A stretch of DNA of 64,000 bases from an uncultured Gammaproteobacteria bacterium (lineage in GTDB: Bacteria; Pseudomonadota; Gammaproteobacteria; Pseudomonadales; Cellvibrionaceae): the NCBI GenBank assembly GCA_966096785.1, contig CBHTVU010000001.1:8850-72849 (forward strand), written 5' to 3'. A model generated the notes under the pieces. That model worked only from the letters and a program-made list of their open reading frames with translations. It had not been told where the DNA came from and did not search any database. A program made the translations under genes and the position numbers. Shown piece after piece: positions 6,058 to 43,885 of the stretch (position 1 is the stretch's first letter; every line of letters begins with the position of its first letter).

Positions 6058-6942
6058 TTAGGCCTTATGCTTTATTAGGCCCTTTATCTTTATTAGCACT
6101 TCTTGGCCGTTCTTGCTGGTGCTTAACCAATCGCTCATGCGCTCAAGCACCTTGCCATCCTCACAGCGATCAAGTATTGCTATTGTTTGGTTATTTGAGG
6201 CCCAAACGAATTTATTTTCTACTGGGTGCCACTTGATAATATTGTTGTCCATTGCGCGCTTAATTACAGCGCGGTATTCAATGCTCTTGTTGTCAATAAA
6301 GTTTTTGAACCATTCTGGGTCATTGTCTGCCAGCTCCATTACTTTATTGCGAAGGATATTAATATCCTGGTGTTCATCCCAACCCATAGCACATGCAAAG
6401 TCAGCAATCTCTGTGACCGACATTTGCGATGCTACAAACATGGCATTGGCGCGGTTTTCCCTGGCGGTTAGCTCTGTTTTGGCCTCCTTCACATCATCAA
6501 TGCGTCGGAATACGGCCATTTCATTTTTATCCCTGAATTCGCCGCCCTCCAGCTTAGGATGCATTTCCAAATACATGAATTTGTCTTGGTCCGCCTGGTT
6601 TTCCATGTCCAGTGTTAACACGCCAGCAAACTGCTCATCCAGATGCACCCTTCCGAAGTGGTCTGAGGGGTGACCATACTCTTTCAAATGCTTAATTATG
6701 CCAATGCGTTTGCGCAGGTTATCGAATGGGTCTGTTATTGAATATGATACTGGTGTTAATGACCACCGTAACGGATACAGATATTCACCACCGGTTTTCA
6801 TCTCGCCATCAGGGTTTCGCTTGGCTATAGAGAACTTATACTTTACATATCGCCCAGACTCCTTAGCCTTCTTTTCAAGCTTCTCGCGCAGCTGAGGCGA
6901 AATATTATTATAAACGGGCTTTGTACCTACTTGATCTAACAT
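6058..6942 (-). CDS. hypothetical protein
   Basis: The track ORF 6058..6996 begins inside the hairpin at 6981-7012. The internal ATG at 6942 (MLDQVGTKPVY...) is the more plausible start. Confidence 0.5.
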   Translation of the reverse strand: MLDQVGTKPVYNNISPQLREKLEKKAKESGRYVKYKFSIAKRNPDGEMKTGGEYLYPLRWSLTPVSYSITDPFDNLRKRIGIIKHLKEYGHPSDHFGRVHLDEQFAGVLTLDMENQADQDKFMYLEMHPKLEGGEFRDKNEMAVFRRIDDVKEAKTELTARENRANAMFVASQMSVTEIADFACAMGWDEHQDINILRNKVMELADNDPEWFKNFIDNKSIEYRAVIKRAMDNNIIKWHPVENKFVWASNNQTIAILDRCEDGKVLERMSDWLSTSKNGQEVLIKIKGLIKHKA

Positions 6943-8398: not shown

Positions 8399-9538
8399 TT
8401 AATCACCTGAAGTAATCGTTCCGAATCTAGCGAGTTGCGCAATTGGGTTGGCAGATTCAGCATTGCCAGTTGCAGGTGTGCCGGCAGCGGGTGCTGATGC
8501 ATTGGCTATTTTATCGGCGACCGACTTAGCACCTAACATTTCGTAGTGCTTAGTAAGATTGCTGAAAAATGCCGTATCATCATTAGCGATCGCTGCTAAT
8601 ACCAATTGCTTGCGTACGTTAGGTGTGCCATCCTCATTCCAGAGTTTCTGTGCCCATTTAGCAGGATCATACAGTAGCCCTAATAACTCATCAGGCTTTG
8701 ACACCTCCAGGTTAAAGGCTTTATCGCCTTCACCAATTTTAAGCAAGCTGGTACTTAACAGCTCTTTCGTATATGAATTGTTCTGTACATGATTGTGATA
8801 ATCTTGTACTTGCTTTTCACGCTGCTCTAATTCTGCTCTTGCTGCCGCTTCTGCTGCTGAATTATCAGGCTCTGGTGGTTTACTTAACAGCATGTCTTGC
8901 TGCCGTTTAATAAACTCCTGGCGTACCCGATCAGCTTCAACGCTCAGTAGTAGCCTGCCTCGCCTAACGTCTTTCTCATCGAATACATCAGGGTCAAGCT
9001 TATACTGTTCAATTACTTTCATCTTATAAACTTCTTCAAAGTCTTCTGCGGACAGCCCACCAAAGTCCTTCATCAAGTGTCGTCTCAACACTTCTTCAGG
9101 CGTCATTTTAGTATAGTCCGTTGTAACGGCTTCTAAGTAGTCTCTAAGATCCTCGCCGCTTTTCCACCTGGAAAGAAAATTGATCATTTTTTCATCCAAG
9201 CCGAAATGCTTCAATACCTCTGCTTCAGGTTGTTGTTTAATTAATTCACGCCAATCGGGCGCAGCTACTTGAGCTGGGCGCGGCTCCGGCGTGACGGGAG
9301 GTGCCTGTTTTGGAGGCTCTTCCACCTTTGGCGCTTCTGTACTTGGGGGAGCTGTAACCGTTTCAGTTTGGGCTTCCGCAGTACGAGGCGCTTCTGTAGG
9401 TGTGGCCTCTGGTGCAGGCGGTGTATCTTGAACCGGAATAGTTACCGGCGAATCATCAGTTTTAAAACCTTCCTTTGCCATCATAGCGGCAATGTTCACA
9501 GGCTCTGTAGTTGTAGGTGTTGCGACAACTTCACTCAT
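8399..9538 (-). CDS. scaffolding protein candidate
   Basis: 379 aa. Pro/Thr/Ala/Glu-rich low-complexity N-terminus followed by highly charged helical sequence. Located immediately upstream of the capsid gene. Confidence 0.55.
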   Translation of the reverse strand: MSEVVATPTTTEPVNIAAMMAKEGFKTDDSPVTIPVQDTPPAPEATPTEAPRTAEAQTETVTAPPSTEAPKVEEPPKQAPPVTPEPRPAQVAAPDWRELIKQQPEAEVLKHFGLDEKMINFLSRWKSGEDLRDYLEAVTTDYTKMTPEEVLRRHLMKDFGGLSAEDFEEVYKMKVIEQYKLDPDVFDEKDVRRGRLLLSVEADRVRQEFIKRQQDMLLSKPPEPDNSAAEAAARAELEQREKQVQDYHNHVQNNSYTKELLSTSLLKIGEGDKAFNLEVSKPDELLGLLYDPAKWAQKLWNEDGTPNVRKQLVLAAIANDDTAFFSNLTKHYEMLGAKSVADKIANASAPAAGTPATGNAESANPIAQLARFGTITSGD

Positions 9539-9874: not shown

Positions 9875-9924
9875 CAAACCTAAAGGGGTTTTAATTTAAT
9901 TAACCAAAAAGCGGATTGACTTTA
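9875..9924 (-). promoter_or_regulatory. conserved late-type promoter element, copy 1
   Basis: Minus strand: TAAAGTCAATCCGCTTTTTGG-N21-TAGGTTTG, then GGGC-ATG. The downstream box is a perfect Bacteroidota -7 consensus (TAnnTTTG). The upstream end overlaps the portal stop codon. Confidence 0.6.
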
Positions 9925-12225
9925 TGCAGGCTCTGCTTCAGCTTCTTTATTTTCGGCTATTCGTTCCTTACTTTCATTCTGCATTTCAGTTGTGACTATT
10001 TTTGTTTGGTTGTTTTCTGTATTCATTCCCAGCTTCATTTGCAATTCCATTTGGAGTAGCGCCGCTTCAAGCTGCTTCTCGCGCTCCATATATTGCATTT
10101 TCAGACCCCATTCCATTTGGAGGGTTTGTTGACGGGCCTGCTCTGCAACCATAGCAGTCTGTTGCGCGCCCTGGTTGTTTTCCTGAATCTTTGCCATTTC
10201 AGCCTTCTGAGCCGCCTCCTTGTTCTTACGGGCTTTATATGCCAGCATCTGCTGGGCCTGCTTAACATTATATACATTTAATATATACAACGCATCGGCG
10301 CTGTCCAGAAACCCTTGGGCTTGATCCTGCTGAATCGCCATCATTAATAGCTGCTTCTGATCATCGTTGGGGCGCTCATCTAACATGATGCCGTAATCGC
10401 GCATACGCAAGGTGTCTGACACCTCTATAAACTGTAGGGTGTTGCTGTTAAGCGCTTTGGCGTAGCCTTCTACTTTGCCCATTTTCAACGACTGCTGCAT
10501 AAGCATCAACATGTCATTGGCAAGGGATTCGAGCAGATACCGTTCGCCGAATTGAAGCGGGAACAATGAATTATTGGTAGATTCCACCGCTATTGATGCG
10601 ACGCCATTCAGTGTTTTTGGATTAGGCGTAGAGCCGTCTGTAAGTTCATTAAGCCCTATGATGCTCTGCATCTGCGTTATTGTAATCTGCAAGTGTTCAT
10701 ATAGCGCTTTAAGCTGATCATAAACGTTGTTGTCAATAGGTATTACAGGCTTGTAATTGACATTATTGCCCATGATATCCTTACTTCGACCGGCAAGGAT
10801 ACCAGTCTCAAAAAACATTTGAAGAAGATCAACAGGCTTCATGTTTTCGCCCCCCTTATTAAGCGCTACATTCTCCAGGGCGTCAAGATCAACCCACCAA
10901 CCCGAAGGCACCATGCGGTTGATAAAGTTTTGTATGCGGTAAACACACATTTGGTATTCATCGGCCAACGGCATTAACCGTTCCATCATTGATAAGGTGC
11001 GCATTTCATAGAAGTTTGGCGCAAAGAATTTATAATCGAGCGTTGTATGGGCCATTTTCTCAGGGTTAACAGACCGCTTCATGTCCTTCTTTAGCCGGAA
11101 GTCATATACATAATCGGTTCCTATTATCCACTTAACCTCATAAACAACCTTAATTTTCTTGCGTAAGTATTTATCTTTCTTATAATTACGGCGCTCCCAT
11201 TCAACTTCGTTAAACATTATGTTACCCCTGCGGTTGATGTTACGCTCAAAGTTTAATTCATTGTAAGAATAGAATTGTAAGTCTAACACTTTAACTGTGT
11301 TCTTATCGTAACTTTTAAAGTAGTTTGTACTTCGGCCAACCATGGCGGGGTTTGACCACTTGCCAGCAACATTATTCTTCATTTCATCGATTTGCTCTGG
11401 CGTGAATACCGAATTGCCATTGTCGTCACGCAATACCGCCAAGTCGATCAGGCTAACATCGATCACCTCGCCAGCATGCAGCAAGTCCCTAAAATCTGGG
11501 AAGCGGCAATAATTGGTAACAACAGCCTCTGGGTTAACATCGCGGCAGCGTGGACGCCCATCCTTATCAAGCCATGCCTTGTACCCAGCTGGGCCACAAT
11601 CAAACTCGCTTTCAAACCAGCGGCGGCGCATCATCTTAACATCGTTCTCATAGAACATGAGCTGTATGGCTTGTTCAGCGTCTTTGCTGCGGTTGAACTG
11701 TTCGCCAAACTCAACCCGCATTTCCAACTCTTCAAAATCCATTGGCTCACCTGGCTGTGGTTGTAACATCGGGTGGTTTGCCAGTTCGGGGTTTTGCTGC
11801 TCCATCAGCTTACGCATAGCGATCTTTGCCTTGGTATCAGCGTAATAACCGTCAAGCTCACCCTTGGCCTGTGGATCAATGGGCGTTGCTACGATATTAT
11901 ATTCCTGTTGTACAAGCCGGGAAATAGCAATGTCACGAAATTTGGGTATGATAGGGCGTACTGACCAATCAACAACCAACCAAGTATTATCAGTTTGTTC
12001 GTCAACTGCTAACAGCTTCTTATACTTATTTATCGGCTGTTTGCCTTGCGCATATAAACGCAGTTCCTCGTACTTATCTGCTGCGTTGTAAAAGCATGTT
12101 CGGGGAATGGTATAATTCCAGTCGCTCCAAGCTGCCTTTGCATACTTCATACCCCACTTAGCATCCTTTAACTTAGGATCAATATCATGTGGGGGGTAAA
12201 CGCCTTTGTCATCTACAGAGATCAT
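9922..12225 (-). CDS. portal protein (by size and synteny)
   Basis: 767 aa. Its start overlaps the terminase stop (ATGA at 12222-12225). Q/E/K-rich helical C-terminal tail. Confidence 0.65.
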   Translation of the reverse strand: MISVDDKGVYPPHDIDPKLKDAKWGMKYAKAAWSDWNYTIPRTCFYNAADKYEELRLYAQGKQPINKYKKLLAVDEQTDNTWLVVDWSVRPIIPKFRDIAISRLVQQEYNIVATPIDPQAKGELDGYYADTKAKIAMRKLMEQQNPELANHPMLQPQPGEPMDFEELEMRVEFGEQFNRSKDAEQAIQLMFYENDVKMMRRRWFESEFDCGPAGYKAWLDKDGRPRCRDVNPEAVVTNYCRFPDFRDLLHAGEVIDVSLIDLAVLRDDNGNSVFTPEQIDEMKNNVAGKWSNPAMVGRSTNYFKSYDKNTVKVLDLQFYSYNELNFERNINRRGNIMFNEVEWERRNYKKDKYLRKKIKVVYEVKWIIGTDYVYDFRLKKDMKRSVNPEKMAHTTLDYKFFAPNFYEMRTLSMMERLMPLADEYQMCVYRIQNFINRMVPSGWWVDLDALENVALNKGGENMKPVDLLQMFFETGILAGRSKDIMGNNVNYKPVIPIDNNVYDQLKALYEHLQITITQMQSIIGLNELTDGSTPNPKTLNGVASIAVESTNNSLFPLQFGERYLLESLANDMLMLMQQSLKMGKVEGYAKALNSNTLQFIEVSDTLRMRDYGIMLDERPNDDQKQLLMMAIQQDQAQGFLDSADALYILNVYNVKQAQQMLAYKARKNKEAAQKAEMAKIQENNQGAQQTAMVAEQARQQTLQMEWGLKMQYMEREKQLEAALLQMELQMKLGMNTENNQTKIVTTEMQNESKERIAENKEAEAEPA

Positions 12226-14237
12226 ATAGTAGCTTTACGCATTCTGAAATAATTTGATATATCGCGTGTTTCCTCAACCTTTCGTTGGTAGGTTTTGTCA
12301 CGGGCGGCGATCAACGCAAAACCAGCTGCCATTGCAACGTCATACTTAGTTGTAGCGCCAAGATCAAAGAGCAACCATTCCCTTAGCAGCTCTTTGAAGT
12401 AAACTTTTTCACAGTGTTCATTAATGTAGGATTCTGTATAATCAGCCAACCATTGGTGTACTTTCTTGTGGCCATCTGTATAAACCCCATAATCATCTTC
12501 GCCGGGTAACATCATTAAAAACCCTTCACAATTTTTATCTATGAAGTAGGACCGCCAGTGATCCACATTGCGTTCAAACAATACCTGACAGCCATAATAC
12601 CACGCCATCTTTAATATATCCTCATTGGCCATGGCAGTTGTTACTGCCCGGTAACGGTAGTAACAAACGAACGTATCATTATATGGGTGTTTGCTATTAA
12701 GTGGGTCGTATTTCTTATAGACAAATGCCGCGCAGTCTGATCTGCGATTGTCCTTTACAGCATCATATTTAAACGGGTCACAGCCGATGGCAAAGGCAAA
12801 ATTGTTATTAGGGTAATATCGCTCATTGCGTTTTACCACCTTGTTTGCCTGATCATAATTCTCCATTAGATACGCGACTTCCCAGCGGCCATTGCTTGAT
12901 TTCTCAAACTTTACCTTTGTAAATGGCTCACCATTCTCCCAAACAAAATTGCCCCTGGTAACCAGGTTTTGTTTATAACTTATGGCGTCCAGTTGGTAAT
13001 TGAGCCGCATGGAGTCGTACAGACAACGATCACCGTCAATGCGAAACGCCTCCTGAATACTAAATGGGTTTTTGCGTATAATGGAGCTTAAAGCTCTGGG
13101 GTCACTTTGTAGGCCGGCGCGTTCCTTAAGAAAGAATTCTTTAGCCCGTTCAACTTCCGGCATGCCGTACTTATCAAAATAGAAGGTTTCATAAGCTGGC
13201 AGAAAGAACCGGTACAGGCCTGACTTAGTACGGCCATTCTCGTTACGTTCGTTAGGGTCCGAACTGTCCCAAATCTTTTTGCCGTTCTCACCACCATTTT
13301 CCATCTCTTCAATGGTCGTTGTTAACAGCGCTTTACCTACCCAGTTGCCATCCTGATCTAAACAAAAACGCACAACATTCCAACGGTCCCACACATTACA
13401 GTCCATAGTCTTGCCAAACTCATCCATTACATAGGTGTTCAGCTTACTGCCGTCATAATAAAATGGCTCTGATGAACCAAAATCTATCCAGCTTTCCAGC
13501 TCTTCACCCTGTAAGATCTTCTCAGCATTACGGCCCTTTGTTGACGTTTGAAAGAACCGTAATTCAGTTGAAGGCGCCATACCCTTTGACCTGTCATATA
13601 CAGGCCTGAAGAAATCGGGCATTTTCTTAAAGAAGGATACCACCGTTTTCTTAAACACCTGCCGGGCGTCCTCGCCCGTTTTGGACTGAATACCGCCATG
13701 ATGATTACGGTACAGACTGGTACGATCAAGTAATATGGAACCGGACTTATAGGTTTTACCCATGCGCCGACGCTCAATATCTACCAGTCCTGCACACCTG
13801 GGGTCCTCCACACAATACTCCCACACGTAGTAAAATTTACGATCAGTATCCCGATAGTACGGATAGCCAATGTCTATTTTACAATAATTAATGTATGTAA
13901 AGTAAGAGCCGTTTATATAGGTAGGGTGCCCGTTATTAAAGAACCATACACCACATAAGCGGTATTTCCAGTGCTGCTCACGTATACGCTCAAGGTCCTT
14001 GTCAAAATATTCCGGGTCATCCCGTTGCTCATCCTCTTCCTCCCTGCGGCGCTTTTCCCAGTCGTCTGGCAGCTCTATACGTCGCCATAGCTGATCTTCT
14101 TTTTTATTGGCGATTTTTTGGATGCCTACAAACTCCAGCTCGCCTGTCAGCCGGTTTTTACCATAACCAACTGGCGGTAACTGGCACTCGTAGCCTTGAA
14201 TCTCTTCTACACTTCCTCCTTCAATTGGGTAGTACAT
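12222..14237 (-). CDS. terL: terminase large subunit
   Basis: 671 aa. Walker A-like RRRMGKTY, Walker B-like LNTYVMDEFG, and a C-terminal nuclease-like acidic motif (AIGCDPFKYD). Confidence 0.85.
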   Translation of the reverse strand: MYYPIEGGSVEEIQGYECQLPPVGYGKNRLTGELEFVGIQKIANKKEDQLWRRIELPDDWEKRRREEEDEQRDDPEYFDKDLERIREQHWKYRLCGVWFFNNGHPTYINGSYFTYINYCKIDIGYPYYRDTDRKFYYVWEYCVEDPRCAGLVDIERRRMGKTYKSGSILLDRTSLYRNHHGGIQSKTGEDARQVFKKTVVSFFKKMPDFFRPVYDRSKGMAPSTELRFFQTSTKGRNAEKILQGEELESWIDFGSSEPFYYDGSKLNTYVMDEFGKTMDCNVWDRWNVVRFCLDQDGNWVGKALLTTTIEEMENGGENGKKIWDSSDPNERNENGRTKSGLYRFFLPAYETFYFDKYGMPEVERAKEFFLKERAGLQSDPRALSSIIRKNPFSIQEAFRIDGDRCLYDSMRLNYQLDAISYKQNLVTRGNFVWENGEPFTKVKFEKSSNGRWEVAYLMENYDQANKVVKRNERYYPNNNFAFAIGCDPFKYDAVKDNRRSDCAAFVYKKYDPLNSKHPYNDTFVCYYRYRAVTTAMANEDILKMAWYYGCQVLFERNVDHWRSYFIDKNCEGFLMMLPGEDDYGVYTDGHKKVHQWLADYTESYINEHCEKVYFKELLREWLLFDLGATTKYDVAMAAGFALIAARDKTYQRKVEETRDISNYFRMRKATI

Positions 14238-14245
14238 ATCACCGC

Positions 14246-14295
14246 CTAAACTATAGGGAAGGCGGCTTATTTAGCCAAAAAGCGGATTGACTTAT
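14246..14295 (-). promoter_or_regulatory. conserved late-type promoter element, copy 2
   Basis: Minus strand: ATAAGTCAATCCGCTTTTTGG-N21-TAGTTTAG, then 8 nt to the terL ATG. Same spacing as copies 1 and 3. Confidence 0.6.
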
Positions 14296-28075: not shown

Positions 28076-28740
28076 GATTGCATTTGCTGATTAATAGCCA
28101 CCCCCCTTTGCTCTTTAACTCCGCTGTCAACCAGCTTATCAGAAATAGGCTCAGTTGTAAACAGCTTGTAAACCTCCTGTATAACATCCCACTCCATATC
28201 TGAGGGAATGGGCAGTATATCATAATCGCTGTACTGACTTATATCCAACACCACCAACCGCATTGTGACTGTTATTGGGTCGGGTTGGGTAAGATCTGTG
28301 GTATAGACAATATCCATCCCATACCATTCATAGCCAACCTGCCCGAGCAGATCATTAAGTAAGGGTTGAGACTTTAGAAGACCCAGCTGGCCCATCTCCA
28401 GGGGAATGAATGGACAATCAGGGTTCGCTGGGTCAAAGATTTGATATACGCCTATGCCTCTAGGTAATTTAAGCGGCATGGCCGGCAGCGTTGATTTGCT
28501 GCGCGTTCCATACTGCACAATAGGAATATCTTCATACGTCGCTACACTGGCGCCGTTTGGTATCATTTCAAACGATGGGATATTCAGGTTTAAATATTCC
28601 ATCTTTAGCAGCTTGTTAAGCACCTGCTCAACCGCTATTTTCACCTCCGGTATTTTCACTTTGGCAGCTGCCGGAATATTACCACCGTTTAACAGTCGCA
28701 CTACTTGCTCTGCAATTCGATATTTTGTTGTTGTTGCCAT
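28072..28740 (-). CDS. structural protein
   Basis: 222-aa ORF, translationally coupled on both sides. Confidence 0.45.
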   Translation of the reverse strand: MATTTKYRIAEQVVRLLNGGNIPAAAKVKIPEVKIAVEQVLNKLLKMEYLNLNIPSFEMIPNGASVATYEDIPIVQYGTRSKSTLPAMPLKLPRGIGVYQIFDPANPDCPFIPLEMGQLGLLKSQPLLNDLLGQVGYEWYGMDIVYTTDLTQPDPITVTMRLVVLDISQYSDYDILPIPSDMEWDVIQEVYKLFTTEPISDKLVDSGVKEQRGVAINQQMQS

Positions 28741-29408
28741 TATGCTTTAGGTACAGCAGTTAGATTTTGCTGTGATTTCATTTCGCTCCATTGGATAATG
28801 TCAGGCTCTGATAGGTTTATTCCCAGGCCGTTAAGTGCTATTAAGATTATGCTTAATATGTCCTTGTCGTTCCATTGAAGCTGTACGCTTGTAAGGGGGT
28901 CGTAAACGATGACACGCCCGCTCATAAGCGTATAGCCAAATACAGGCGTCCTGGGAACTGCGAGGTATACCATTGTGCCCGCGTGCTGGACCTTTGGATA
29001 CAGTTGCCACGTGTCATTATCGACCCGAACAACAACCGGTGTAAACTCGCTCGGCGCGTCGATCTGGCTATTGAGCCTATAGGCAAGTTCGTCGTCTGCA
29101 ATCACCTCTACAGGACGTGTTCGGGTAACGTTTAAGTCATCAACTACTGTAGTTGTGATTGCCAGCATGTCCTGGTAATCTTCTGGGTTTGTAATGACAC
29201 CTGTTGCGTGCGAGAATGTAAGTGCAGCCTTGAACGGTGCCAAGGCGTCATCAAGCCGCTGGCTTGTTTGGTATTTTGTATAGTATGTATTAAACAGGGT
29301 ACGCTGCCCCCGGTCAACAATCATAGTTAACTCTTCGGGCGTGTACCAGCCGCCTTGGGCCTTATTTATATAGAAATTTAAAAGCTCGTATATCTCGTTT
29401 AGGTCCAT
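28740..29408 (-). CDS. structural protein (first gene after promoter copy 3)
   Basis: 222-aa ORF. Its ATG lies 6 nt after the TAGTTTAG box. Confidence 0.45.
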   Translation of the reverse strand: MDLNEIYELLNFYINKAQGGWYTPEELTMIVDRGQRTLFNTYYTKYQTSQRLDDALAPFKAALTFSHATGVITNPEDYQDMLAITTTVVDDLNVTRTRPVEVIADDELAYRLNSQIDAPSEFTPVVVRVDNDTWQLYPKVQHAGTMVYLAVPRTPVFGYTLMSGRVIVYDPLTSVQLQWNDKDILSIILIALNGLGINLSEPDIIQWSEMKSQQNLTAVPKA

Positions 29409-29414
29409 GAAGGC

Positions 29415-29464
29415 CTAAACTATAGGTAATCAGTGAGATGTTGCCAAAAAGCGGATTGACTTTA
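29415..29464 (-). promoter_or_regulatory. conserved late-type promoter element, copy 3
   Basis: Minus strand: TAAAGTCAATCCGCTTTTTGG-N21-TAGTTTAG, then GCCTTC-ATG. Shares the 13-bp CCTATAGTTTAGG with copy 2. Confidence 0.6.
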
Positions 29465-30867: not shown

Positions 30868-31539
30868 ATGAAAATACTATTTAAGCTACCGAGCCGTAGC
30901 AGGCCTGAGCGATTCTTTAAGACGCTGGATAACCTGCATACTATGATAGTTGATAAGGAAAACTTTCATATTGCTTGCACACTGGATGAAGATGATTATT
31001 CTATGAATAATCAGGAGGTAAGAGCACGCATTACGGCATATCCTAACACAACTGCAATGTTCGGTTATTCAAAGTCAAAGATCGATGCTTTCAACAGGGA
31101 TATGCTTGATATTGATGGCTGGGACATATGCGTTGCGGTCAGTGATGATATGCAGTTTACTGTAGTTGGTTTTGATAACCTTATACGTGAGGGCTTTAGA
31201 TGTAACGCATCAGATTTAGATGCATTATTACACTACCCGGACCAAGATGCTAAACAGGCAATACCAGTATTATATATAGCGGGTAGGAAATACTTTATTC
31301 GGGACCTGTTCATTTATAACCCTATCTACGAAAGCCTGTTTTGTGATAACGAATCAATGGAGGTAGCTAAAATGCGCGGCAAATATTTCTATATGGGCAT
31401 ACGCATCTTAAATCATTTAAACCCGGCTTATGGCCACCTTCCGCGAGACGCCCAATTTGACCGGCAGCAAAACCTATGGGGAAGGGATGAGCGCGTATTC
31501 AACATTCGTAAAGCTAACAACTTTGGTCTTATTATATGA
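30868..31539 (+). CDS. glycosyltransferase-like protein (GT-A type)
   Basis: 223 aa. N-terminal ILFKLPSRSRPERF and acidic motifs TLDEDD and VSDDM are consistent with a DxD nucleotide-sugar transferase. Confidence 0.45.
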   Translation: MKILFKLPSRSRPERFFKTLDNLHTMIVDKENFHIACTLDEDDYSMNNQEVRARITAYPNTTAMFGYSKSKIDAFNRDMLDIDGWDICVAVSDDMQFTVVGFDNLIREGFRCNASDLDALLHYPDQDAKQAIPVLYIAGRKYFIRDLFIYNPIYESLFCDNESMEVAKMRGKYFYMGIRILNHLNPAYGHLPRDAQFDRQQNLWGRDERVFNIRKANNFGLII

Positions 31540-34441: not shown

Positions 34442-34708
34442 ATGCGCATAGAAATGCCAAATCATAGCAGCAGAGAAGATATCCATGCCATCCACGGCAA
34501 CACAATGACCTTGTTAAGCGAAAAAGAAGTTAATGAGGGCGATACGATAGTAAGCCCTCATAAAATCACACTAACGCATTATGCTGTTTTCTATGTAGAA
34601 GAAATTAAAGAAAAGCGCCGGCCTATGGGTGATTGGAAGTGTGAGCCGCCGAATTTATATAAGATTAGGTTTCGCAAAGAAATGGTAAAGTTTGAGATGA
34701 CAAATTAA
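34442..34708 (+). CDS. hypothetical protein
   Basis: 88-aa ORF. Confidence 0.4.
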   Translation: MRIEMPNHSSREDIHAIHGNTMTLLSEKEVNEGDTIVSPHKITLTHYAVFYVEEIKEKRRPMGDWKCEPPNLYKIRFRKEMVKFEMTN

Positions 34709-38163: not shown

Positions 38164-38441
38164 TGAAAAAGCCTAATTACAGCCCATTCCCAAAACTGGA
38201 ACAAAGCAGCAATGATACTGGCCGCTTAGTATCTTACCATGTTCAAAAAAGGGGGCCAGAGAAGCGTACAATTTATTACTTATTTAAAGACGTTGTAGCA
38301 GCTAAAGGCGGCATAGTACAACAAAACTACCTTGTATATACCACGTTTAATTTTGAGCGACTGCACCAGTATCTTACACAGTCCGGTTTAGTGCCAATGA
38401 TAAATCAAATAGACCCAAGGATCGTAATGGAGTATTTATAA
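38160..38441 (+). CDS. hypothetical protein
   Basis: 93 aa, ATGA-coupled to the phosphatase gene. Confidence 0.45.
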   Translation: MMKKPNYSPFPKLEQSSNDTGRLVSYHVQKRGPEKRTIYYLFKDVVAAKGGIVQQNYLVYTTFNFERLHQYLTQSGLVPMINQIDPRIVMEYL

Positions 38442-38449
38442 ACAAAAAA

Positions 38450-38466
38450 CCCCTGCACAGCAGGGG
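38450..38466. terminator. hairpin terminator at the end of the plus-strand operon
   Basis: CCCCTGC-ACA-GCAGGGG. The A-run lies upstream and the T-run is on the minus strand only, so it is stronger for leftward transcription. Confidence 0.5.
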
Positions 38467-38670
38467 TTACACTAATCAAATACCATTAACCATTAAACCT
38501 TATCCTATGTCCAAATATAATACAGTAATTTTATTGAACAAAATTATATGAGTAATTAATCTTTCCTGCAACAAGATTATCTTAACATATACTTTATTGT
38601 TAGTATTATATTTATACTTTATATAATATGGCGGGTTCAGATTAGGCTGAAAAGGACTAACGCTAAATTA

Positions 38671-38844
38671 ATGGGCCTCATACATCAGTTCAATTATCAG
38701 AATTATCAAATGGCTCAGGTGCAAATTGAATACTTTAATAATAAACCTGATATAACACCCCAGGAACGGGAAAAGCTCTATAAAGCACAAATAATTGTTC
38801 AGAAATTCCATGATAATTATGAGCAGCCAACTGAAAATTCTTAA
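38671..38844 (+). CDS. possible small protein (57 aa)
   Basis: ATG..TAA frame MGLIHQFNYQNYQMAQVQIEYFNNKPDITPQEREKLYKAQIIVQKFHDNYEQPTENS. It falls below the track cutoff and is the only protein-like frame in the 1.3-kb gap. Confidence 0.3.
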   Translation: MGLIHQFNYQNYQMAQVQIEYFNNKPDITPQEREKLYKAQIIVQKFHDNYEQPTENS

Positions 38845-38901
38845 ACTTTTTTCAACCTGTATATCACATCGTTAGTATTTAATTAAGGTGCTTTCTACTT
38901 A

Positions 38902-38951
38902 TAAAGTCAATCTGGAATTTGGCAATTTCGCAAAAAACACCTGTAGGTTTA
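38902..38951 (+). promoter_or_regulatory. conserved late-type promoter element, copy 4 (plus strand, no CDS downstream)
   Basis: TAAAGTCAATCTGGAATTTGG-N21-TAGGTTTA. Spacing is identical to copies 1-3 (43 nt from the first T to the -7-like box). Confidence 0.5.
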
Positions 38952-38956
38952 CAGTG

Positions 38957-39058
38957 CTTTGATCCGAATAGGTAATGCGCATATCTACTCGGGTTGCGAA
39001 TGGGACCTGAAATTCCGCTAGTAACTCGCCTGCACATGCGCATTGTGCGGGCTTTTTT
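38957..39058 (+). ncRNA. candidate ~100-nt phage small RNA
   Basis: Bounded by promoter copy 4 and an intrinsic terminator. No start codon or open frame. Contains two copies of the palindrome ATGCGCAT (38975-38982 and 39036-39043). Confidence 0.4.
39028..39058 (+). terminator. intrinsic terminator, plus-strand specific
   Basis: GCCTGCACA-TGCGCAT-TGTGCGGGC followed by TTTTTT. The single non-Watson-Crick pair is G-U on the plus-strand RNA and would be A-C on the minus strand. Confidence 0.6.
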
Positions 39059-39372
39059 ATGCCCGACTGTTCCAAAGCTGGCTGCCTAACAGGTAACCGG
39101 GCTAATGACCGGGACTGGTTCTTCACTCGACAGAGTTCTTTACAGTGTTGTTAGGGGAATGACGGGGGAATAAAGGGGCTAGTGCCCAAGGACCCGTTGC
39201 AGCCTCAAAAGGGCTGCTGGTAAATAACGGCGACGGCGACCGACGAATCGTTATAACCAATTCTGAAGAGGTTAAGCCCCTCTTTAGGAATTGGTGTATC
39301 CAGCTCTGGCTCCCTCTGAATTGTTATTATGATGAATATAGTTAGTGTATAAAGGGCATGATACAAACAAAA

Positions 39373-39398
39373 ACACCCCTGGTGTTACCCAAGGGTGT
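39373..39398 (-). terminator. intrinsic terminator, minus-strand specific
   Basis: Minus strand: CACCCTTGG-GTAACA-CCAGGGGTG followed by TTTTTGTTTG. The odd pair is G-U on the minus RNA and C-A on the plus RNA. Confidence 0.55.
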
Positions 39399-39506
39399 GT
39401 AAGACAGCATAACCAATAAAACGATACCGACAATGATTAGGAAGTTACCTGTTAATACTGCCTTTATAGGTTATTCTTTCGCGGGAAATAAACTATGCCT
39501 CAAATA

Positions 39507-39525
39507 TCTTCACATTTCTTCACAT
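39507..39525. repeat. direct repeat TCTTCACAT x2 (10-bp period)
   Basis: TCTTCACAT at 39507-39515 and at 39517-39525. Confidence 0.6.
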
Positions 39526-39538
39526 ATCCAAATAAAAA

Positions 39539-39561
39539 GCCCCGAGTGGAGAACCCAGGGC
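39539..39561 (-). terminator. intrinsic terminator, minus-strand specific
   Basis: Minus strand: GCCCTGGG-TTCTCCA-CTCGGGGC followed by TTTTTATTT. Two G-U pairs on the minus RNA would be A-C mismatches on the plus RNA. Confidence 0.5.
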
Positions 39562-39717
39562 GTCTGATTGATTGTAACCTTTAAAAACATCTAGTGTTCT
39601 CTTTCGAGCGTTTTTGCGTAACTATCCATTGATGTGATTAAAAAATATTGTTGACATGTGCAATATCTTAACATTACTTAACTTTTCCTAACAATCGTTC
39701 ATATAAAATATTTTACT

Positions 39718-43743: not shown

Positions 43744-43815
43744 CGCGCGGTAGAGCAGGGGCAGCTCGGTAGGCTCATAACCTATAGGTCGGTGGTTCGA
43801 ATCCATCCCGCGCAA
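43744..43815 (+). tRNA. tRNA-Met (anticodon CAT) with initiator (fMet) hallmarks
   Basis: Hand-folded cloverleaf: acceptor CGCGCGG/CCGCGCA with a C1-A72 mismatch; D-stem GAGC/GCTC (A11:U24); anticodon loop CTCATAA; T-arm GGTGG-TTCGAAT-CCATC. Closely parallels E. coli tRNA-fMet. No encoded CCA. Confidence 0.85.
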
Positions 43816-43885
43816 CAGTCTTTTTAGCGATGAAAGCAGAAGAGGTTAAAGTAACATTTGTTTAATTCGTATTAATTCTGCTAAT

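Follow-up and report, generated by a model that had tools for sequence, protein, structure and literature searches.

A predicted structured RNA of about 380 nucleotides with a late-type promoter and an embedded terminator in phages of Chitinophagaceae

In the packaging RNA (pRNA) of the phi29 family, a helix between the 5′ and 3′ ends encloses two hairpins with complementary loops, which covary among related phages. The CI RNA of phage P4 and the c4 antisense RNAs of phages P1 and P7, immunity RNAs that are processed from longer transcripts in the early or lysogenic programme, have complementary segments within the same transcript, which control premature termination and diverge while staying complementary. 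A closing helix that encloses hairpins with pairing loops is also a feature of the purine riboswitch, a three-way junction, and of cobalamin riboswitches (the L5–L13 pairing), where one of the kissing partners is the loop of the regulatory hairpin. Here we describe a locus in a 64,000-nucleotide (nt) stretch of phage DNA (contig CBHTVU010000001.1, positions 8,850 to 72,849; hereafter the window), in which the intergenic gap at 38442–39717 appears to encode a previously undescribed family of structured phage RNA. The predicted RNA, about 380 nt long, would be transcribed from a promoter of the type used by the virion and packaging genes, and combines a closing helix (termed P1), two hairpins with mutually complementary loops, an intrinsic terminator embedded in its 5′ part and a multi-helix 3′ domain.

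The RNA resembles phi29 pRNA in having the P1 closing helix and two loops whose mutual complementarity covaries. It differs in the length of the loop pairing (7 base pairs (bp) against 4 bp) and of the whole molecule (about 380 nt against 174 nt), in its embedded terminator and in matching no model; it also belongs to a terminase-type phage of a Bacteroidota host, the window encoding a large terminase and a portal, and the locus is without DNA similarity to GenBank phages. Covarying complementary segments within one phage transcript are shared with the P4 CI and c4 RNAs, but the promoter here is of the late type, the partners are hairpin loops 55 nt apart, and no Rfam model is matched. Unlike the purine and cobalamin riboswitches, the RNA has hypervariable loops and no conserved downstream gene, and again matches no model. 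With ROOL and GOLLD it has in common that it is a large, intricately folded phage non-coding RNA, without an associated protein gene and with a transfer RNA (tRNA) gene nearby (43744–43816); it is smaller than these RNAs, has a defined late promoter and an internal terminator, gives no covariance-model match even at E ≤ 10, and is so far restricted to one group of Chitinophagaceae phages. The lambdoid PR′ arrangement (lambda 6S RNA; StxS of Stx phages, PMC7547250) likewise places a strong intrinsic terminator about 100–200 nt beyond a late promoter, so that here too a short RNA would be made unless the terminator is overridden. Read-through mediated by the Q protein leads into the late genes of lambdoid phages, whereas in the window phage each late operon has its own promoter copy and read-through would give a conserved, folded 250-nt domain; no Q-like factor was identified, and the host is a member of the Bacteroidota with a different promoter grammar. 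The guide RNAs of dCas12f–sigmaE (PMC13472631, a paper that mentions Chitinophagaceae) were considered as a further likeness and set aside as being of a different design.

Seven homologs of the RNA gene were compared, namely the window and six independent copies in related phage contigs (L001, L007/L327, L331, L332, L336 and L338). Two of the related contigs came from IMG/VR (L001/L002, and L007, which is the same contig as L327/L340), and L331, L332, L336 and L338 were reached through contigs encoding homologs of the neighbouring metallophosphatase. An nhmmer profile run over 2.8 megabases of collected DNA matched only these homologs, no DNA match to the locus, near or distant, was found among GenBank phages, and a single metagenome scan returned only the contig of L007, already in the set. 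The carriers are a group of phages of Chitinophagaceae (Bacteroidota) with genomes of about 75–80 kilobases (kb). The alignments (A4 and A5) run unbroken from the promoter to about position 39325, and nucleotide identity within the RNA is 70–80%, compared with amino-acid identities of 49–83% for the flanking phosphatase. The hairpin pattern ATCCGA..TCGGGTT occurs in viral contigs in L001 and L007 only. Shorter probes were discarded: the pattern AGGGGAATGACGGGNGAAT matched, besides L001's contig, L003 by chance inside a coding region; the 15-mer CTCTTTAGGAATTGG gave 80 chance matches; and the more than 120 viral contigs found with the 19-mer GTGCGGGYTTTTTTATGCC share only 22–27 nt, a common terminator sequence. 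This 19-mer, which corresponds to the 3′ half of the terminator and its U-tract, is present in more than 120 unrelated IMG/VR contigs (L088–L207), many of them from isolate genomes, and appears to be a terminator sequence that is common in some other group of prophages.

The conserved structure was assembled by hand on alignment A5 and, including the loop–loop pairing, comprises 92 pairs, with 94.4% of 630 cells paired. Compensatory changes are found in 38 of these pairs, compared with 16.8 ± 2.7 in column shuffles, none of 500 of which reached 38, and with 8–13 in a slid control in which the partners were shifted by 1–3 columns. The RNAalifold consensus has 90 pairs, of which 36 carry compensatory changes. 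G-U pairs occupy 67 cells and A-C combinations 8, an asymmetry indicating that the plus strand is the folding strand, and the region folds more stably than shuffled sequences (5′ domain, z = −3.7; whole RNA, z = −3.1). The seven homologs have no reading frame in common, their stop-free runs differing in frame and position, and a protein-coding role for the region is ruled out on this ground. A first-pass annotation, made from the letters of the window, had proposed a plus-strand, non-coding, structured phage RNA here and had named covariation in related phages as a check; the proposal is upheld by the compensatory pairs, the G-U asymmetry and the absence of a common frame. It had also been unable to place the RNA in a known family, and Rfam 15 at gathering score matches only the tRNA-Met gene in the window and nothing in the six homologous loci, a negative that covers ROOL, GOLLD, pRNA, tmRNA, group I and II introns and riboswitches, and also C4 if that family is part of release 15; at E ≤ 10 there are weak chance matches centred on the terminator, which differ between homologs.

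P1 joins the start of the RNA to a segment 15 nt beyond the U-tract of the terminator (Table 1); the duplex can form in all seven homologs and four of its six pairs show compensatory changes. Since P1 needs bases past the U-tract, the 100-nt terminated product cannot form it. Enclosed by P1 are two hairpins with fully complementary 7-nt loops, and a multi-helix 3′ domain of about 250 nt follows. The outer stem of the upstream hairpin (Ha/Ha′) is invariant, its inner stem has compensatory changes in two of four pairs, and its 7-nt loop AUGCGCA (38975–38981) is the 5′ partner of the loop–loop pairing. The 3′ partner is the loop UGCGCAU (39037–39043) of the terminator hairpin, which as RNA reads GCCUGCACA, loop, UGUGCGGGC and U6. 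Six of the seven loop–loop pairs show compensatory changes: the seven phages hold six versions of the loop sequences, complementary over 7–9 bp in every case. The earlier observation that the 8-mer ATGCGCAT occurs at both 38975–38982 and 39036–39043 was correct, and the pairing of the terminator loop with an upstream segment, proposed on its basis, proves to be real by covariation. The 8-mer count is by itself unremarkable (3 found in the window against 2.45 expected), and the sole further copy, at 34442, was rejected as another target of the loop sequence because it is at chance level; the palindromy of the window loop is coincidental and peculiar to that one version.

The terminator hairpin has a 9-bp stem with six G-C pairs, a 7-nt loop and a T6 run, as expected for an intrinsic terminator, and was recovered by a terminator scan with its wobble pair as U-G on the plus strand, in keeping with the initial description. 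Stem and U6AU tract are essentially unchanged in all seven homologs, the sole differences being in L007, where one G-C pair is exchanged for A-U and the last C of the stem, before the U-run, is U. The same design of hairpin and U-run ends 107 of 111 host small RNA (sRNA) genes, described below, from which it follows that the host uses such terminator signals. The 3′ domain contributes helices 7–15 and contains the conserved unpaired G-rich motifs AGGGGAAUGAC and GGGGGAAU. Of the stems listed for this region from the window sequence, GCAGCC/GGCTGC and CCAATTC..AGAGG/CCTCT..GAATTGG covary (helices 13 and 15), while GCCCGACTGTT/AACAGGTAACCGGGC was found on manual inspection of A5 to be unconserved, its bases lying in other covarying helices (138–145/202–209 and 149–153/162–166, A5 numbering). 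Pseudoknots between G-rich and U-rich segments (GUUCUUY with GGGGAAU), flagged by a helix scan, were rejected as they overlap better-supported helices and are absent in L336.

The promoter assigned to the RNA gene is one of exactly four copies, in 64 kb, of the motif GTCAATC-N5-TTTGG-N21-TAnnTT, all with identical spacing, where none would be expected. The three minus-strand copies lie 6–10 nt before the ATGs of terL, of a small open reading frame (ORF) that is the first in the operon following the portal gene, and of the virion structural gene at 28740–29408, a geometry from which the late operon messenger RNAs can be taken to be leaderless or nearly so. The fourth copy, on the plus strand, is followed by no ATG, which bears out its earlier description as a late-type element that has the same spacing but precedes no start codon. 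All seven homologs keep TTTGG and the downstream-box TA unchanged. The late promoters of the L007/L340 phage bear a different upstream box, AACCTGAGCTG-TTTTTTG: those of terL and of the next late (presumed head) operon carry AACCTGAGCTG or AACCTGCTCTG before TTTTTTG, and that of the RNA gene reads AACCTGAGCTG-TTTTTTGG. The upstream box thus agrees within each phage and differs between the two, and its sharing within the L007 phage provides independent support for placing the RNA in the late programme. The RNA gene is accordingly predicted to belong to the late regulon and to be transcribed from a promoter of the virion and packaging type, so that its proposed expression together with the structural genes, first suggested by the common promoter type, gains strength from the second phage. 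Bacteroidota housekeeping promoters consist of a −33 TTTG and a −7 TAnnTTTG box with a spacer of about 19–21 nt; the RNA promoter has the TTTG and, in TAGGTTTA, seven of the eight positions of the −7 box, but a 22-nt spacer and the additional upstream box. By itself, the −7 box shows no enrichment in the window (52 copies against 52.8 expected).

Helix P1 begins where the ATG stands in the leaderless late mRNAs, and this promoter geometry together with the start of P1 makes about 38956 the likely 5′ end. The 3′ end is approximate, with conservation fading at about 39325–39340. The conserved and presumably functional unit is therefore predicted to be an RNA of about 380 nt, from 38956 to about 39325–39340, which spans the terminator and extends well beyond a 100-nt sRNA.

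Table 1 Positions of the features discussed, in window coordinates, and the loop sequences of the seven homologs
Feature	Position	Strand	Basis or remark
Structured RNA, about 370–385 nt	38956–39340	plus	Alignment A5, 7 homologs
Late-operon-type promoter of RNA gene, TAAAGTCAATC-N5-TTTGG-N21-TAGGTTTA	38902–38951	plus	Motif match
P1 5′ strand, GCUUUG	38956–38961	plus	Pairs with 39073–39078
P1 3′ strand, CAAAGC	39073–39078	plus	15 nt beyond U-tract
Hairpin Ha/Ha′	38962–38994	plus	Stem AUCCGA/UCGGGU invariant; inner stem GGUA/UAUC
Intrinsic-terminator hairpin, GCCTGCACA-TGCGCAT-TGTGCGGGC-T6	39028–39058	plus	Terminator scan
3′ domain, multi-helix	39080–39325	plus	Helices 7–15: 25 pairs with compensatory changes
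3′ domain helix	39085–39092/39148–39155	plus	
3′ domain hairpin	39096–39100/39109–39113	plus	
3′ domain hairpin	39199–39205/39211–39217	plus	
3′ domain long hairpin	39256–39271/39279–39295	plus	
Loop pair, window: AATGCGCAT/ATGCGCATT			
Loop pair, L331: AGTGCATGT/ACATGCACT			
Loop pair, L338: ATAACGGGT/ACCCGTTAT			
Loop pair, L332 and L001: AATTCAGGT/ACCTGAATT			
Loop pair, L336: AATACAGGT/ACCTGTATT			
Loop pair, L007: TACGGGT/ACCCGTA			
Late promoter copies	9877–9924, 14248–14295, 29417–29464	minus	Motif match
Portal	9922–12225	minus	Virion/packaging set
Large terminase (terL)	12222–14237	minus	Packaging
Virion structural protein	28740–29408	minus	
Host-type sRNA gene, about 70 nt	38441–38542	minus	Promoter match, terminator scan, host copies
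sRNA promoter, TTTG-N19-TATATTTG	38542→38512	minus	
sRNA body, C-free, 40 nt, CAUAGGAUAAGGUUUAAUGGUUAAUGGUAUUUGAUUAGUG	from 38509	minus	
sRNA terminator hairpin, then U-run	38468→38448	minus	Terminator scan
57-amino-acid ORF, N-terminally truncated small-protein family member	38671–38844	plus	hmmsearch
Intrinsic terminator facing 3′ end of RNA gene	39373–39398	minus	Terminator scan
Second intrinsic terminator	39539–39561	minus	Terminator scan; block conserved in L331 and L336

The reading that we consider probable on balance, if by no great measure, is that of a new plus-strand structured RNA of about 380 nt with a late promoter, an embedded conditional terminator and an action in trans late in infection. 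The embedded hairpin and U6 would serve as the conditional terminator. When the upstream hairpin and the terminator hairpin both fold, their loops being able to kiss, transcription would stop at about 39058 and an RNA of about 100 nt would be released, either as a terminated by-product of the longer RNA or as its second product. When the loop–loop pairing instead grows into a nested 10-bp helix, in which CGGGUU pairs with AACYCG and GGGC with GCCY, the terminator stem would be pre-empted, the polymerase would read on and the full RNA would close through P1. Late in infection it would then act in trans, by binding a protein or by associating with itself. Folded only as far as the U-tract, the sequence has the terminator hairpin in its minimum free energy (MFE) structure in all seven homologs; once downstream sequence is added, the nested fold, in which GCCY is the partner of the 3′ strand of the terminator stem, is the MFE structure in five of the seven. 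The helices specific to the nested fold are 94.6–100% paired, with six wobble-compatible single changes. The segments that change partners between the folds do not vary, and the helix common to both folds varies freely, a pattern that fits a two-state element. The conditional-terminator switch is thus a plausible and, in our view, the best reading, albeit unproven. Action in trans is suggested by the genes downstream of the RNA, which are unrelated among the homologs, and a role as the leader of one particular gene was rejected for the same reason.

Several observations weigh against this reading. The covariation counts derive from only seven related sequences, whose shared ancestry inflates them. 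The helices specific to the nested fold lack double compensatory changes and have one broken pair, in L007; the terminator stem and the inner stem of the upstream hairpin together have three compensatory pairs. In the mature RNA the terminator hairpin might simply persist, with the loops kissing. In none of the homologs is the RNA followed by a plus-strand terminator or a conserved 3′-end signal, and the transcription start site, the termination efficiency and the 3′ end are all deduced from sequence. The RNA is absent from the relative L337, which has the sRNA block, and it is thus apparently dispensable within the phage group. Nothing in the analysis points to a function of the full-length RNA.

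Among the alternatives, it is unlikely that the functional product is only the terminated RNA of about 100 nt (38956–39058), a late phage sRNA, with the downstream 270 nt forming a separate element. The canonical and essentially invariant terminator, whose hairpin is favoured at the decision point in all seven homologs, would suit such a product, and a precedent exists in the early-terminated PR′–tR′ RNAs of Stx phages, which, as outlined in PMC7547250, can act as sRNAs. P1, however, joins the 5′ end to bases past the U-tract and covaries, no promoter was seen for the 3′ domain, and conservation is continuous across the terminator. The first-pass annotation had centred on a terminator-bounded RNA of about 100 nt and had allowed for a larger structured RNA reached by read-through; the larger RNA is the part that stands, the stand-alone sRNA being weakened by P1. 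About as improbable is a leader acting in cis, whether by processive antitermination of the put or EAR kind or as a riboswitch-like attenuator of the downstream plus-strand genes. It draws on the existence of a terminator/antiterminator pair of folds, on the lack of a terminator at the RNA 3′ end, which makes read-through into downstream genes possible, and on ORFs that start 0–50 nt after the RNA in L336 and L001. The downstream genes, however, are unrelated among homologs and include no conserved regulated gene; beyond the RNA, both the window and L331 have convergent minus-strand terminators and a gene-free stretch of about 380 nt; a conserved 250-nt domain after the terminator is the wrong order for an aptamer and its expression platform; and no Rfam riboswitch or leader is matched.

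A distinctly less probable alternative takes the loops to pair between molecules, hand in hand, so that the RNA would assemble into a ring or cage for packaging or virion assembly. The promoter common to terL and other virion operons is in line with this, as is the closing 5′/3′ helix with two hairpin loops that covary so as to stay complementary, on stems that do not change; judging from known kissing complexes, a fully paired 7-nt loop–loop helix would moreover stack coaxially, which is awkward for two hairpins in one junction. Linkers of 20–33 nt, on the other hand, would probably permit pairing in cis, the nested alternative fold explains the same pairing, covariation does not distinguish cis from trans, packaging in this phage relies on a large terminase and not on the phi29 system, and neither sequence nor model comparison gives a match to pRNA, ROOL or GOLLD. 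Were the loops intermolecular, for which we see a similarly slim chance, their changing sequences would amount to a phage-specific assembly code and the embedded terminator would set the RNA dosage; a terminase-type phage of Bacteroidota would then have an RNA machine resembling pRNA or ROOL/GOLLD. It is very improbable that the locus acts at the DNA level, as a replication origin, a packaging site or a set of protein-binding repeats, with structure incidental. Its GC-richer island, G-rich repeats and gene-poor setting would be compatible with such an element, but 38 pairs keep Watson–Crick or wobble pairing through compensatory changes, the excess of G-U over A-C shows one strand to be folding, and the promoter abuts the first helix.

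The gap also carries, on the minus strand, a small RNA gene of host type (Table 1), whose promoter is the only full match to the −33/−7 Bacteroidota pattern in the window. Its 26-mer core is found in more than 119 stretches of Chitinophagaceae genomes (L208–L326), with several copies per genome, in Niastella, Puia, Flavihumibacter, Flavitalea, Longitalea and other genera of the family, and it is this distribution that identifies the host group. Of the 111 host copies for which flanks are available, the body is complete in 94, a terminator, variable in sequence, is present in 107, and 81 have a TAnnTT[TA]G box 6 nt upstream; the 40-nt body is invariant across many Chitinophagaceae genera. The gene is also present in all relatives of the window phage and in five unrelated viral contigs (L004–L008), among them L008 with the 3′ part only and L005 with two copies separated by 8.8 kb. 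It has no match in Rfam, and could be a hijacked host sRNA or the core of an attachment (att) site. Pairing between the sRNA and the RNA of about 380 nt was rejected, as the energies are no better than those of shuffled sRNA and the sites are unconserved. Six Logan contigs (L328, L329, L330, L333, L335 and L339; 3.9–81 kb) stop within the sRNA block that directly follows the phosphatase module, because a repeat shared with host genomes breaks the assembly; the RNA locus is hidden in many assemblies by this break. In L337, the corresponding region contains two ORFs with weak Sigma70_r2 matches (6093–6728 and 8695–8837).

The window is a phage genome whose minus strand holds the virion and packaging genes and in which a long run of small plus-strand genes begins at 30868. 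The 1,276-bp gap is bounded by the stop of a 93-amino-acid (aa) ORF (38441) and by the next plus-strand ORF (39718), and the ORF list of the window contains none longer than 75 aa within it. All sequence features that the first-pass annotation had listed are present where it placed them, and its account of a gap without a convincing ORF holds in that there is no full-length gene. The 57-aa frame that it had discounted is nevertheless a truncated real gene or gene remnant, corresponding to a C-terminal half: BLASTP alone gives no match, but hmmsearch with a profile of a five-member small-protein family aligns it to profile positions 49–101 of 102 (E = 1.4e-7). Members of this family consist of a transmembrane segment, which the window ORF lacks, and a C-terminal domain, and the family is represented, in the interval from the sRNA gene to the RNA gene, by two paralogs in L001 and also in L331, L332 and L336. 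The picture of a locus with a single RNA was also incomplete, having overlooked the sRNA gene, the truncated ORF and two minus-strand terminators that face the RNA gene. The more distal of these terminators is followed on its strand by a conserved TTTGG...GTGAAGATATTTG box, and a conserved GTnAAGATATT(T)G box (39487–39500 and 39660–39672), shared with L331, precedes each of the tandem minus-strand units. No ORF lies within these units in the window, which also lacks the 157/158-aa minus-strand ORF found to the right in L331 and L336; they may represent additional small RNAs, or what is left of the 3′ region of that gene. The phage-borne tRNA-Met (CAT) gene lies 4.4 kb downstream of the RNA gene.

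Large, strongly structured RNAs without a known function are rare, and several have proved to be new kinds of molecular machines. The mechanism of the present RNA is only partly resolved, but its anatomy could be read from sequence alone: a promoter whose link to the virion genes is seen in two phages, a likely 5′ end, 38 pairs that covary among just seven sequences, and a built-in intrinsic terminator whose loop takes part in a long-range pairing with a sequence that has changed in almost every lineage. So defined, the RNA is directly testable. Chitinophagaceae are a soil and freshwater group with almost no molecular genetics, and the RNA is one of few leads at the RNA level for their phages. 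The host-type sRNA, invariant over 40 nt, multi-copy and carried by at least two unrelated phage groups, is a second unexplored topic.

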